Positions 7,272-12,430 of a stretch of DNA of 46,021 bases are shown piece after piece. The translations under genes and the position numbers were made by a program. Origin of the DNA: a virus. Its lineage: Duplodnaviria; Caudoviricetes. The number at the start of each line of letters is the position of its first letter. Within the stretch, counting starts at the first letter, position 1. The stretch lies in IMG/VR virus record IMGVR_UViG_3300046323_000666, positions 1-46,021 of that record; one strand, written 5' to 3'. The notes beneath the pieces are model-generated. The model ran no database searches, had not been told where the DNA came from, and worked only from the letters and a program-made list of their open reading frames with translations.

Positions 7272-7388
7272 TAACGTTATCTCGCTTGGCTTAGTGCCGA
7301 GTTATGAAAACTAAATTATCTAATTAAAAATAAAACGTTATGAAAAACGATAAAAACGAAAATAAGGCATTGAGCCAAACGAGTGTTA
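7272..7388. repeat. attC-like site 1 (117 bp)
   Basis: TAAC 7272; arms CTCGCTTGGCTTAGTGCC (7281-7298) / GGCATTGAGCCAAACGAG (7366-7383); GTTA 7385. Confidence 0.85.
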
Positions 7389-7636
7389 GCAGTAGTATTA
7401 ATGCACTGATTTCTAAATTTGATAATGGATTAGAATTGTACCAAAATAATGCGGTTTTTGCAAATTGCATAGAACACTTATTACGAGGTGGAGATATTTA
7501 CAAAATGCTTGAACAAGTTGTAGTAATGCAAGATAAAACACAAGAAAAACTTACTGAACTTCTTTCGAGTGGGGCTTTAAGACAAGAAATTATAATTTCC
7601 AAAGATAAATTTGATGAATTATCGAGTGGTTTGTAA
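7340..7636 (+). CDS. Cassette 1 hypothetical protein (98 aa)
   Basis: Starts inside the site 1 loop; ends just before TACTGCTAAC. Confidence 0.75.
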   Translation: MKNDKNENKALSQTSVSSSINALISKFDNGLELYQNNAVFANCIEHLLRGGDIYKMLEQVVVMQDKTQEKLTELLSSGALRQEIIISKDKFDELSSGL

Positions 7637-7645
7637 TATTACTGC

Positions 7646-7717
7646 TAACAGGCGCGCGCTTTGCGCAGGCTTTGGAGCTTGCTCAAAGCGTGAGTTAGGC
7701 GAAGGGCGCGCCTGTTA
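7646..7717. repeat. attC-like site 2 (72 bp, GC-rich)
   Basis: CTAACAGGCGCGC / GCGCGCCTGTTAG perfect inverted repeat, with inner hairpin GCTTTGGAGC-TT-GCTCAAAGC. Confidence 0.8.
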
Positions 7718-7747
7718 GGCAAAAGGTGTTCGCGCCTTTTGCCTAAC
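7714..7747. repeat. Gene-less cassette body (34-bp hairpin)
   Basis: GTTAGGCAAAAGG-tgttcgcg-CCTTTTGCCTAAC. Confidence 0.8.
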
Positions 7748-7873
7748 GTTATGCAGCTACACGAGCGGTTGGGGCAAGAAAAGCCTAGACTTTCGGAGTT
7801 GGAACAGAACTTAAAAACAAGAACAAAAAATGGAATTAATAACCAAGCCCCAACTGTCGTGTAACTGCTGTTA
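7744..7873. repeat. attC-like site 3 (130 bp)
   Basis: Arms GCAGCTACACGAGCGGTTGGGGC (7753-7775) / GCCCCAACTGTCGTGTAACTGC (7847-7868), one extrahelical G; GTTA 7870. Confidence 0.85.
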
Positions 7874-7908
7874 TGCGGGGTTGTGGATGGTTAAAACAAA
7901 ATATTATT

Positions 7909-8208
7909 ATGGAAACAATTGCAATTATCGGACACGTTGACCGCGGTAAAACAACATTAACTGCCGCTATTAAAAGTGTTTTAGAACAAAAACATAGCGT
8001 GTATCAAGATGCTTTTGAAGAAGTAATTGAGTATAAAAATCCTTATGCTTTTCTAAACGAAAAACCAACGCCAAGTAAGTCAAGGTTAAATAAATGCAAA
8101 AAAGGGTTGCACGAATTTCAGGAAACAAATCACGACATAGTACAAGAAAATATGTTTGTAAAAAAATGGGCGTGTATGCATTGTGGTACTTTAATGCACG
8201 AAAGGTAG
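7909..8208 (+). CDS. Cassette 3 protein: EF-Tu-like P-loop peptide plus C-terminal Zn-ribbon-like motif
   Basis: IAIIGHVDRGKTTLTAAIKSVL; CKKGLH...CMHCG; ATG 7909 has an A-rich leader. Confidence 0.75.
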   Translation: METIAIIGHVDRGKTTLTAAIKSVLEQKHSVYQDAFEEVIEYKNPYAFLNEKPTPSKSRLNKCKKGLHEFQETNHDIVQENMFVKKWACMHCGTLMHER

Positions 8209-8218
8209 CAATCCTGCA

Positions 8219-8347
8219 TAACGTATCGTGGCTTTGTCTTGTTGCCGAAAAAATAAGACCTAAATTTTAAATTAAAAACAGAAAATGGAAAGTACAAAAC
8301 CAACATTAAATGAAGCCGAAAACGGCAATAAGTCAAAACCACTGTTA
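8219..8347. repeat. attC-like site 4 (129 bp)
   Basis: Arms GTGGCTTTGTCTTGTTGCCG (8228-8247) / CGGCAATAAGTCAAAACCAC (8323-8342); GTTA 8344. Confidence 0.85.
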
Positions 8348-8755
8348 CAAGCAGTGTTTTTAGCACCTTATTTGCCTTACAAAATTGAAGCATTAAACCC
8401 TTTTGATGAAACAAACAAAATAATTGGTTTAAAAAACGAAACTTATTTTATAGAAAACGGAAATAGTTACGCTTATGGAGATATTCGAGATTGCAGACCG
8501 ATTTTAAAACCTATTTCAGATTTATCATTATTAGTAATTGAAGAATTTGAAAAATACGATGGAAAAAGAAACGGAAAAGCGAACGAAGAAATTATAAATC
8601 TTTTTTGCGAAGAAAACGGAGTTGATGAAATTATTGAGAATATAGTTTTATCAAGTTTACCCTATGAATGTGTTGAATTTATGTTTAGAAATCATTATGA
8701 CTTCTTTGGATTAATTTCAGAGGGATTGGCAGTTTCAATCCACGATGTTGTGTAA
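8285..8755 (+). CDS. Cassette 4 phage hypothetical protein (156 aa)
   Basis: LAPYLPY...PILKPISDL...HYDFFGLI pattern, recalled from Bacteroidota phage proteins; starts in the site 4 loop. Confidence 0.8.
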   Translation: MESTKPTLNEAENGNKSKPLLQAVFLAPYLPYKIEALNPFDETNKIIGLKNETYFIENGNSYAYGDIRDCRPILKPISDLSLLVIEEFEKYDGKRNGKANEEIINLFCEENGVDEIIENIVLSSLPYECVEFMFRNHYDFFGLISEGLAVSIHDVV

Positions 8756-10322: not shown

Positions 10323-10356
10323 GCGGTAGTTTATTAATGGAATTAAAATTTAAAAT

Positions 10357-10815
10357 ATGGGAACACAAGTAGTAGGAGAAAGTAACAGCGTTGAGTATAG
10401 CACTCCGTTGAAAATAGTACAGCCATTGATAAACGAATTTGGCTTGACAAGAGATGTTTGTGCAAGTGCATTAAATCACAAACTGCCCGATTATTGGACA
10501 AAGGAAGATAATTCACTTGCTATGAATTGGGAAGGTAATTGTTGGATGAACCCACCATTTAGCAGAGATTTGAATAAGTGGGTAAAAAAAGCGTGTAATG
10601 ATGCTGAAAGGTTTGGGGGAACGAAAGTTTGTTTAATACCTGTGAGAAGCAATACAAAATGGTGGGCGGAAGTTTGTGTAAAAGCAGAAATTCGTTTTAT
10701 CAATGGAGAAGTAAATTTTAATGATGAAGAACGTGGACTTTGGTTGCCGATGTGTATTATTATTTTCGGTGAGAAGGCAAAGGTTGGCACGTTCTCTGTC
10801 TTAAATTACCGCTAA
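10357..10815 (+). CDS. Cassette 7 phage-type DNA N6-adenine methyltransferase (Dam-like)
   Basis: TP...DVCAS...WMNPPF motif; stop codon lies in the TAAC core. Confidence 0.88.
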   Translation: MGTQVVGESNSVEYSTPLKIVQPLINEFGLTRDVCASALNHKLPDYWTKEDNSLAMNWEGNCWMNPPFSRDLNKWVKKACNDAERFGGTKVCLIPVRSNTKWWAEVCVKAEIRFINGEVNFNDEERGLWLPMCIIIFGEKAKVGTFSVLNYR

Positions 10816-10936
10816 CGGAAAAGATTGTCGTGGTTGGGATAAAACAAAAACTAATAATTAAATTTAAAACAAAACTGAAAGATGGAAAACAATGTAAAAG
10901 TTCAAGACGATACCCAATCACTACAATCGTGTGTTA
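10813..10936. repeat. attC-like site 8 (124 bp)
   Basis: Arms GATTGTCGTGGTTGGG (10823-10838) / CCCAATCACTACAATC (10913-10928); GTTA 10933. Confidence 0.85.
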
Positions 10937-11256
10937 GTGTTTCGGTTACGGATTCAAATAACGATTCCGAATATTATTATTTAGGAAGAAAAATTCTTGT
11001 ACAGCAAAATTTCACAAAAAAAGAAGATAGACCCTTTGATGCGTATTATCAAGCATTGAAATTTCTAGACGATAGAAATTATCATTCAGGTTCTTTAGCG
11101 GTTACTAAAAGCAACAATATTGCAGTGAAAAAGGATTACTATAATTTACCTGAAAAATGGCACAACTTAGATAAAGAAGATATTGCTTCAATTGATGGTG
11201 TAATTAGAAGTTCAGATTATAGAGAAGGTTTAGTTACCGTGATGTTGTTTAACTGA
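10882..11256 (+). CDS. Cassette 8 hypothetical protein (124 aa)
   Basis: Starts in the site 8 loop; ends at the next core. Confidence 0.8.
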   Translation: MENNVKVQDDTQSLQSCVSVSVTDSNNDSEYYYLGRKILVQQNFTKKEDRPFDAYYQALKFLDDRNYHSGSLAVTKSNNIAVKKDYYNLPEKWHNLDKEDIASIDGVIRSSDYREGLVTVMLFN

Positions 11257-11260
11257 ACAC

Positions 11261-11384
11261 TAACGTTTTTGCTATAAGACGGTTGGGTTATAAATTCCCT
11301 AAACTTCAAGCCAAGACCAAAACATTCGGATAGTCCAAATGTTTAAATTAATCACAATACCCAACTGTTTTATAGCAATTGTTA
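11261..11384. repeat. attC-like site 9 (124 bp)
   Basis: Arms TTGCTATAAGACGGTTGGG (11269-11287) / CCCAACTGTTTTATAGCAA (11360-11378); GTTA 11381. Confidence 0.85.
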
Positions 11385-11419
11385 TAAGGCGTTGTGGGTC
11401 ATTAAAAACAAAAGTTTTT

Positions 11420-12355
11420 ATGAATACTGAACAAAAAAATATAGTTGCTTTATTCGATGGAATGAGTTGCGGACAAATTGCACTAAATGATATTGGTTTT
11501 AAATACGATAATTATTTTGCAAGTGAAATCGATAAATACGCAAAAGAAGTCACTCAAAAAAACTTTCCAAACACTAAACAAATTGGAAGTGTTTTAGATG
11601 TAAAAGGAGAGGATTTACCAAAAACATTTTTAATGATGGGAGGAAGTCCTTGTCAAGATTTAAGTAGTTCAAATGTTTGGACTGAACAAAAAGGATTGGA
11701 AGGTAAAAAAAGTAGTTTGTTTTGGGAATATGTTAGATTATTGAATGAATTGAATCCGAAGTTTTTTCTACTTGAAAATGTAGGTTCTGCAAAAAAATCA
11801 GATATTGAAATAATTGATAGAGAATTAGGGGTAAAAGGAATAAAATTTAATTCTAAATTAGTTTTACCTCAAAACAGAAATCGTGTTTATTGGACAAATA
11901 TTCCTTTTGAATTACCTAAAAATGAAATGATATTGACAATGCAAGATTTGCTTGAAAAAGATGTTGATGATAAATATTACATTACTCAAAAAATGTATGA
12001 TTGCATTATATCTCCTGGAACTAAAGGATGGCAAAGTGGTAAAATGGAAATTGATTTAAGAATAGCAAGACCATTGACAGCGACAATGCATAAGATGCAC
12101 CGAGCCGATACTGATAATTATATTACAGGAATTGCACCCGAAGGAAAAACAAATGTAAGACGATTAACTCCAATAGAATGCGAAAGATTGCAAGGGGTGA
12201 AAGATAATTATACTCAAGGAGTTTCCGATACGCAACGATATAGAATGTTAGGCAATGGATGGACAGTTGATGTTATAGCACATATTTTCAAAAGTTTGCT
12301 AAATGAAGATTGCGAACCTACACCACGCTTTACTGAAAAAAGTTCTTATGGATGA
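11420..12355 (+). CDS. Cassette 9 DNA cytosine-5 methyltransferase
   Basis: Motifs LFDG, GSPCQ, ENV, QNRNR, RRLTP.ECERLQ, GNGW; likely start 11420 (in-frame ATG also at 11339). Confidence 0.92.
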   Translation: MNTEQKNIVALFDGMSCGQIALNDIGFKYDNYFASEIDKYAKEVTQKNFPNTKQIGSVLDVKGEDLPKTFLMMGGSPCQDLSSSNVWTEQKGLEGKKSSLFWEYVRLLNELNPKFFLLENVGSAKKSDIEIIDRELGVKGIKFNSKLVLPQNRNRVYWTNIPFELPKNEMILTMQDLLEKDVDDKYYITQKMYDCIISPGTKGWQSGKMEIDLRIARPLTATMHKMHRADTDNYITGIAPEGKTNVRRLTPIECERLQGVKDNYTQGVSDTQRYRMLGNGWTVDVIAHIFKSLLNEDCEPTPRFTEKSSYG

Positions 12356-12374
12356 CTTGTTTAGCAATGCCTTA

Positions 12375-12430
12375 TAACTACTATATGTATTTTTATATGT
12401 AAAACATCAATAAAATAAACACTTAACAAT
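12375..12430. other. Candidate attI-like primary recombination site
   Basis: Last TAAC core (12375-12378) has no partner hairpin; followed by TATATGTA direct repeats (12382, 12394) and the integrase ATG. Confidence 0.55.

Follow-up and report, generated by a model that had tools for sequence, protein, structure and literature searches.

The closest described systems to the locus analyzed here are the integrons and the clusters of integron attachment sites (attC) reported in phages; published work is cited throughout for those parts of its text that were available to us. In integrons it is the bottom strand of attC that folds better (PMC5027507), and the de novo formation of gene cassettes is described as largely unknown (PMC5371416). 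The insertion specific to the integron integrase (IntI) has been linked to attC recombination (Escudero 2016, Smyshlyaev 2021), and it is incompletely conserved across the integron-like subgroup of tyrosine recombinases (Smyshlyaev 2021, PMC8138268). Complete integrons in Bacteroidetes proper are reported only for Salinibacter (Néron 2022), and the available main text of Ghaly 2021 does not mention Bacteroidetes. Phage attC clusters, including one with methyltransferases in Polaribacter phage P12002L, were described by Qi et al. 2023 (PMC9892861); for this phage the authors report a pair of divergent sites but no integrase, and P12002L_attC1 was the one site of six not recombined by IntI1.

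Here we describe a region of IMG/VR virus record IMGVR_UViG_3300046323_000666 (Duplodnaviria; Caudoviricetes), whose 46,021 nucleotides (nt) are referred to as the window. The record is 61% complete, phage genes are present, and DNA near-identical to it is held by freshwater metagenomes. The region is an integron-like array of nine attC-like hairpins, an attI-like insertion site and an IntI-related recombinase; since relatives of this enzyme sit in records titled Flavobacterium, Bacteroidota and Saprospiraceae, the host is probably a member of Bacteroidota. The array shares with integrons (PMC5027507, PMC5371416, PMC4792948) a tyrosine recombinase next to an insertion site that has no hairpin, hairpins lying between AAC and GTT with a core-adjacent G·T and one better-folding strand, and complementary cassette ends with reordering at the AAC core. 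Our reading, to which we assign a probability of roughly 0.75, is that the adjacent recombinase drives integron-like excision and insertion at AAC, with rarer exchanges at GTT that re-pair the hairpins.

Anatomy of the array and the stem formed by the body ends

The array alternates bodies, each running from GTT to AAC, with hairpins of 64 to 122 nt. The bodies of units 1 to 9 are 265, 34, 353, 425, 1022, 247, 498, 332 and 998 bp long, and an extra ninth hairpin lies upstream of the first body (7276-7384). A custom hairpin detector returned exactly 9 sites in the whole 46 kb, every one inside the array, against a mean of 0.025 sites in 40 shuffles of the window. All 18 motifs that an initial annotation had listed as nine start/end pairs occur once each where they were placed, and the GTTG/CAAC variant that it assigned to cassette 6 occurs in unit 6 only. 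The features are as follows (ORF, open reading frame; aa, amino acids; the basis of the call, where recorded, is given in brackets).

7260-7275, +, distal flank ending in AAC, the left array boundary (sequence)
7276-7384, +, hairpin 0, 109 nt; its loop carries the ATG (7340) of the unit-1 ORF (detector)
7385-7649, +, body 1; ORF 7340-7636, 98 aa, no family (ORF, profile search)
7650-7713, +, hairpin 1; GC-rich perfect clamp, internal body-start copy at 7694 (detector)
7714-7747, +, body 2; gene-free 34-bp unit (sequence)
7748-7869, +, hairpin 2, 122 nt (detector)
7870-8222, +, body 3; ORF 7873-8208, EF-Tu-like P-loop N-terminus (ORF, profile search)
8223-8343, +, hairpin 3, 121 nt; its loop carries the ATG (8285) of the unit-4 ORF (detector)
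8344-8768, +, body 4; ORF 8285-8755, 156 aa, no family (ORF)
8769-8850, +, hairpin 4, 82 nt; near-identical copies elsewhere lie before unrelated bodies (detector, comparison)
8851-9872, +, body 5; C5 cytosine methyltransferase 8918-9841 (profile search)
9873-9989, +, hairpin 5, 117 nt (detector)
9990-10236, +, body 6; ORF 10022-10201, 59 aa; its end-frame encloses another gene in locus L002
10237-10318, +, hairpin 6, 82 nt; shares its loop family with hairpin 4 (detector)
10319-10816, +, body 7; adenine methyltransferase of the Dam family, 10357-10815; found in 10 further phage contigs, sharply bounded at GTT and AAC
10817-10932, +, hairpin 7, 116 nt; its loop carries the ATG and a 17-codon leader of the unit-8 ORF
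10933-11264, +, body 8; ORF 10882-11256, 124 aa; homologs have a co-varied stem and another leader
11265-11380, +, hairpin 8, 116 nt; copies of 93-94% elsewhere lie before other bodies
11381-12378, +, body 9; C5 cytosine methyltransferase, ORF 11339-12355; the start may be the later ATG at 11420
12376-12395, +, attI-like insertion site; AAC, then a conserved TACTATATGTA-type motif, no strong hairpin
12431-13261, +, tyrosine recombinase, 276 aa, IntI-related, without the IntI insertion

The two ends of each body were compared over positions 4 to 15, with a maximum of 12 matches. As had been claimed, ends match within a cassette (8-11 of 12) better than across a site (2-6 of 12); the diagonal sum of 91 was equaled in only 1 of 362,880 permutations of the start/end pairing, and among 2,640 background GTTR..YAAC pairs elsewhere in the window 9/12 was reached by none and 8/12 by 10. 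Most window units mismatch at position 11, usually with G at the start and T at the end. The same pattern is seen in 230 distinct bodies taken between consecutive sites, some of which span missed sites, which lowers the stem figures: Watson-Crick pairing is 0.62-0.94 at positions 4-10 and 12-15 and falls to background from position 16, with start-G/end-T at position 11 in 76% of them. A match of at least 9/12 was found in 154 of 226 bodies and in 6 of 374 comparisons across sites. Stems are identical in 26 of 29 pairs of homologous bodies; in the other three, 17 of the 22 changed stem positions stay Watson-Crick on both sides, and the stem changes between body 8 and its homologs in L133-L135 likewise keep pairing. 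In a control of 16 Vibrio and Shewanella IntI cassettes complementarity is full to position 7, 88-94% at positions 8-9 and about one half at 10-11, and the fixed wobble at position 11 is absent; the stem is thus about 1.5 times as long as the canonical one, and not twice as long as initially estimated. Integron cassettes ordinarily have complementary ends. Because the 15-bp stem is conserved with a fixed G·T at position 11, it is a maintained structure and not only a footprint of circular intermediates, as the complementary ends had first been interpreted.

The + strand folds better at 84% of 258 array sites and in 97% of the circle forms, which is the same bias as that of the attC bottom strand. 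When circularized in silico, all nine window sites fold better than in the array form, by 2.9 to 12.5 kcal/mol, as the initial annotation had predicted; this is entailed by the end complementarity itself. Across 268 arms folded by energy, with no alignment, there is an unpaired stretch of 4 nt, a distal G·T and one position that is paired in only 68%; no one fixed extrahelical base is prominent among them.

In the phage arrays the better-folding strand is also the coding strand of most bodies: of 216, 186 are forward, 5 reverse (two being orientation artifacts) and 25 unclear. The corresponding host arrays were studied in 16 loci, hand-picked among the better-scoring recombinase matches on long contigs, in 15 of which the same hairpins lie beside the recombinase; the stem and its G·T recur there in 85% of 52 bodies, with the genes on the opposite strand (the canonical orientation) in 38 of 40. 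This comparison bears on the proposal that the complementary ends act as RNA, for instance as a terminator or a processing stem at the close of each transcript unit, and play no part in DNA recombination. A G·T wobble on the sense strand in the phage suits RNA pairing, but in hosts the G·T is on the antisense strand in those 38 of 40 bodies, so that the wobble tracks the recombination strand and not the transcript, and the homology boundaries described below coincide with the core of the stem; we regard the RNA proposal as highly improbable. Since phage genes are reversed with respect to canonical integrons, the hairpin loop lies upstream of the gene and often provides its start codon; by a criterion that overcalls, 82 of 153 long hairpins and 4 of 68 short ones contain the start of the longest ORF. 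The N-terminal leader of body 8 differs in L133 and L134. In the region 7830-7940, the hairpin-2 loop has an ATG whose frame is not that of the unit-3 gene, which would be expected had hairpin and gene come together secondarily. The direction of the genes excludes a canonical Pc promoter reading from attI, and a sigma-70 promoter scan, which is not suited to Bacteroidota, returned 32 matches against 28.9 expected, a chance level.

Three bodies (5, 7 and 9) code for DNA methyltransferases, which probably serve anti-restriction. The unit-3 protein joins an EF-Tu-like P-loop segment to unrelated sequence and is possibly a captured host fragment or a decoy; an Atlas look-up gave only leads below 0.9. 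The gene-free, GC-rich unit (7650-7747) has a perfect clamp and a copy of its own body start at 7694. Its architecture recurs in L133, L134, L135, L146, L156, L173 and L267, among which co-varied cores AAT/ATT (L146, L156) and GAT/ATC (twice in L133) occur, suggesting a conserved structured non-coding cassette. No tRNA genes were found in a scan of the window and no Rfam covariance model matched in the array: a microRNA family at hairpin 1 was rejected for its weak score, far under the cut-off, and Flavo-1 RNA (RF01705), considered as the identity of the hairpins, has no array match, its true hits being a different repeat. Elsewhere in the window, a polyvalent protein of 3,427 aa (22753-33036) combines ADP-ribosyltransferase-like with SNF2/helicase domains.

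The recombinase beside the array

The recombinase gene starts 53 nt past the last AAC. Its catalytic residues (R132, K157, H221-x-x-R224, H247, Y256) are invariant in 18 rows of homologs, and the catalytic R lies 89 residues from HxxR, compared with 130-132 in three IntI and 95-96 in Xer proteins. Aligned with 2A3V, residues 178-197 cover 181-243, and a gap of about 41 residues is seen against Shewanella IntI; the IntI-specific insertion (I2 helix) is absent. The array appears to work like an integron, but its enzyme scores 158.6 bits with the TIGR02249 profile, under the cut-off of 265, and the top profile and PDB scores go to XerA-like proteins, also under curated cut-offs. A tree of 29 rows, with only three IntI and three long branches, places the recombinase with IntI and apart from XerC/D (support 100/97), and the 276-aa type forms its own clade.

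A longer, related recombinase is encoded in 135 of 201 genomes of the family of genome G001, besides the hosts' own XerC/D. In many cases the host match is no more than a few hundred bases from a contig end, which is what assemblies broken by neighboring repeat arrays would give. Two more tyrosine integrases flank the array in the window (5609-6853 and 13258-14421); the right-hand gene runs over the stop codon of the cassette recombinase, and upstream of it two copies of an A/T-rich direct repeat of 22 nt are spaced by about 170 nt (14420-14615), possibly as integrase arm sites. An excisionase-like gene (6988-7221) lies to the left of the array. It could be supposed that the array depends mainly on the related host chromosomal enzyme or on either of the flanking phage integrases and that the gene beside it is incidental, a supposition that the frequency of the host relative and the case of P12002L, which has such hairpins and no annotated integrase, would favor. 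Against it, the 276-aa type keeps all catalytic residues within a clade of its own and lies beside an array, behind a conserved insertion motif, in 68 of the 73 loci whose upstream DNA is long enough (a hairpin no more than 3 kb upstream), so that we consider service by another enzyme improbable.

Exchanges at the AAC and GTT sides

At the end of the array the sequence past the last AAC is conserved, and the 15 nt before it match the start of the last body; among last bodies, 51 of 75 match their own start at 9/12 or better. The attI-like motif was found in 98 of 118 distinct recombinase loci, compared with 8% in shuffles; a scan of viral contigs with the motif gave mostly chance matches without arrays. 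That the same cassettes would be found with different neighbors in other genomes, as the initial annotation anticipated, is seen both in ten other contigs with body 7 and in L028 and L030, which share four units in different order, each retaining its upstream hairpin. Contig joints were searched in the contigs of 8 freshwater runs, disregarding back-joints that joined similar loops or two methyltransferase genes. Joint 11260>12375, in runs X1, X3, X5 and X6 (4 of 8), deletes hairpin 8 and body 9; joint 10812>12375, in run X2 (1 of 8), deletes two units; these AAC-side joints overlap by 4 letters at the core. Because both the contig joints and the L028/L030 reordering cut at AAC, the routine mobile unit is a hairpin with its downstream body, like an integron read from the minus strand; the GTT..AAC body initially proposed as the mobile cassette is therefore incomplete. 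Units probably enter and leave at the attI-like site. In one array on the chromosome of genome G109 (L338), a 312-bp body occurs twice and a 407-bp body three times, with different neighbors.

A second kind of breakpoint is seen at GTT. Body 7 is 96-97% identical in L136-L143 and 84% identical in L144-L145, and in all ten of these close homologs identity ends 0-3 nt before GTT and 0-2 nt after AAC. The boundaries of these close homologs thus map to the cores, in agreement with the earlier proposal that sites in the array are hybrids made by crossover at the core. The hairpins before these homologs are 53-120 nt long and often unrelated, and the idea that a hairpin always travels with its downstream gene was dropped. 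In L141, L144 and L145 body 7 has exact GTT/AAC ends and no hairpin, which suggests insertion at secondary sites. Distant unit-7 homologs (68-75%) do not share their ends with body 7, and homologs of the unit-6 protein are outside cassettes or have no mappable boundary. Conversely, hairpin 4 recurs with 98-99% identity in four other loci, and as the same family in a fifth, followed by several unrelated bodies; two or more bodies follow 15 of 23 hairpin families. In a manual count of hairpin families 10 switch within 8 nt of GTT and 6 keep at least 12 nt, with one family counted in both groups. There are 14 body clusters with at least two contexts: nothing changes in 3; the upstream hairpin is retained in 7, of which 4 come from a single phage pair, and exchanged in 4, one of them borderline. 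A pair retaining the downstream side only was not seen. Loose contig ends lie directly past GTTA at 8347, 8854 and 10322, and may derive from other phages in the samples.

The ends of a body can also be separated from its gene. For non-homologous payloads behind the same hairpin, positions 4-12 are identical in 10 of 44 pairs, compared with 205 of 35,677 other pairs; there is dependence among these pairs, and the ten may include partial homologs. In L002 the start and the last 45 nt of body 6 enclose an unrelated gene, and contigs skipping 10008/10014>10193, with intervening DNA of other sequence, are present in all 8 runs. The boundaries of such refilled frames are less sharp than the core crossovers, and directed gene capture into the end-frame is therefore only a possibility. 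Contigs in runs X1 and X2 keep the arms of hairpin 3 and skip its loop (8247>8319), so hairpin loops may be exchanged as well. Taken together, the boundaries of body 7, one hairpin before several genes and one frame with different genes indicate, at the level of sequence, that hairpin, end-frame and gene are separable modules.

The main rival for the GTT step accepts that the AAC side is recombinase-driven and attributes the hairpin swaps to replication slippage or phage recombination at TGTTA repeats, helped by folding of the body stem and the next hairpin and deleting a body with its downstream hairpin. The same 5-nt repeat is indeed present at every junction, integrase-independent excision of short cassettes attributed to slippage has been reported (PMC5371416), loops and payloads swap at variable points (the 8247 and 10008/10014 joints), and inverted units are nearly absent. 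What this account does not anticipate is that the breakpoints fall at most 3 nt from GTT in ten of ten body-7 homologs whose hairpins are unrelated and of very different length, or that body 7 keeps exact ends in the three hairpin-free loci, and we hold it to be rather unlikely. More doubtful still is a one-step swap of hairpin heads, in which the absence of the I2 helix, which in IntI prevents the second cut together with extrahelical bases, would let the recombinase complete both strand exchanges between folded sites. The missing insertion fits this scheme, and so do the folded arms, in which no one fixed extrahelical base is prominent, as does the latent second-exchange activity that IntI keeps, blocked by extrahelical bases on attC (PMC4792948). 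An inner second cut, however, should move the base two before GTT together with the body, and this base varies among body-7 hairpins and is constant in the copies of hairpin 4; one-step double exchange with an inner second cut is thus disfavored.

Under the reading that we prefer, the recombinase would recombine a folded site on the + strand with the attI-like site in double-stranded form or with a second folded site, cutting at AAC; this step is proposed from the integron model and the mapped breakpoints. Units would probably be excised as circles of a hairpin and its downstream gene, the circle rebuilding a two-armed rod in which the hairpin arm is stacked on the 15-bp body stem with its G·T pair. 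Because the arm formed by the body ends completes a two-box site whichever hairpin is present, any body could fit any hairpin. Entry of new units would take place at the attI-like site, which has no hairpin and adjoins the recombinase gene. An occasional cut of the opposite strand at both flanking sites would free a body with its downstream hairpin, and normal re-insertion would then put that hairpin in front of the body.

A number of observations weigh against this reading. On the AAC side, four of the five attI joints have a short side of 26 nt and only that in X5 exceeds 30 nt, X1 may be the source sample, and no circle junction was seen in the 8 contig sets, in which contigs drop rare forms. 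On the GTT side, no joint was seen in the window's own population, the clean joints being all AAC-side; 14 of the 17 pairs of bodies that differ on both sides stem from one body; and in sedentary integrons, too, it is normal for one hairpin to precede different genes (PMC8352920). In canonical integrons the top strand recombines 1,000-10,000 times more rarely (PMC5027507), and frequent cutting of both strands predicts inverted units, yet only 5 of 216 bodies are reverse, although selection could remove inversions. Finally, both the hosts, with their relative of the enzyme, and the phage itself, with its two flanking integrases, provide other candidate recombinases.

Comparison with known systems

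In a wider and tentative interpretation, which we hold at clearly less than even odds, these arrays would be a sister integron lineage, widespread in Flavobacteriaceae chromosomes and their phages, missed by IntI-based tools, with a recombinase lacking the insertion patch and a pseudo-symmetric, two-armed single-stranded site; hairpin, frame and gene would be exchanged separately, the second loop of the circle would capture genes, and the reversed orientation in phages would provide a swappable translation start. If this is true, the arrays record cassette creation in progress. IntI-based surveys, in their available text, report almost no complete Bacteroidetes integrons, yet two thirds of the sampled-family genomes (the 135 of 201 above) encode this type of recombinase, and a cassette system without a supposedly essential insertion would bear on integron evolution. 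One frame with unrelated genes, and one gene with several hairpins, are defined substrates for tests of cassette formation, so that the system may help to show how gene cassettes are built; for phages, it would be a site-specific route for rotating anti-restriction methyltransferases. No description of the present system was found in the literature searched, which was largely outside subscription journals; as available to us, that literature covers only isolated phage attC clusters (Qi et al. 2023). Unexpected to a specialist would be the longer stem with its wobble, the enzyme without the patch, the reversal of genes in phages and the separability of hairpin, frame and gene.

The system nearest to the present one is that of P12002L, likewise a Bacteroidota phage with methyltransferase cassettes (PMC9892861). 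By inspection P12002L_attC1 has the hairpin architecture described here, with an inner part of 41 nt, below the minimum of our detector, which returned 9 further sites on the gene strand of this phage; several such sites were also found in Leef_1. The recombinase, the insertion site, the reversed genes and the long end stems are not part of the available text of Qi et al. 2023. With regard to clusters of attC sites lacking an integron integrase (CALIN), the present locus has no IntI by the profile cut-off, yet an IntI-related recombinase abuts the array. The array enzyme agrees with the integron-like simple tyrosine recombinases in falling on the IntI side of the tree; Smyshlyaev 2021 (PMC8138268), as far as its available text goes, deems the insertion essential to integron function, whereas here arrays accompany enzymes without it. 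With XerC/XerD and archaeal XerA the enzyme shares a similar length of the catalytic domain, and its best-scoring proteins are XerA-like, but it stays under the family cut-offs and, with the tree support given above, apart from the host XerC/D. From IntI it is distinguished by the missing insertion and the shorter R-to-HxxR distance (89 against 130-132 residues). With respect to canonical integrons, finally, the stem is 15 bp with a fixed G·T instead of 9-11 bp without one, the phage genes are reversed and often start in the hairpin loop, and hairpins, end-frames and genes are frequently re-paired.

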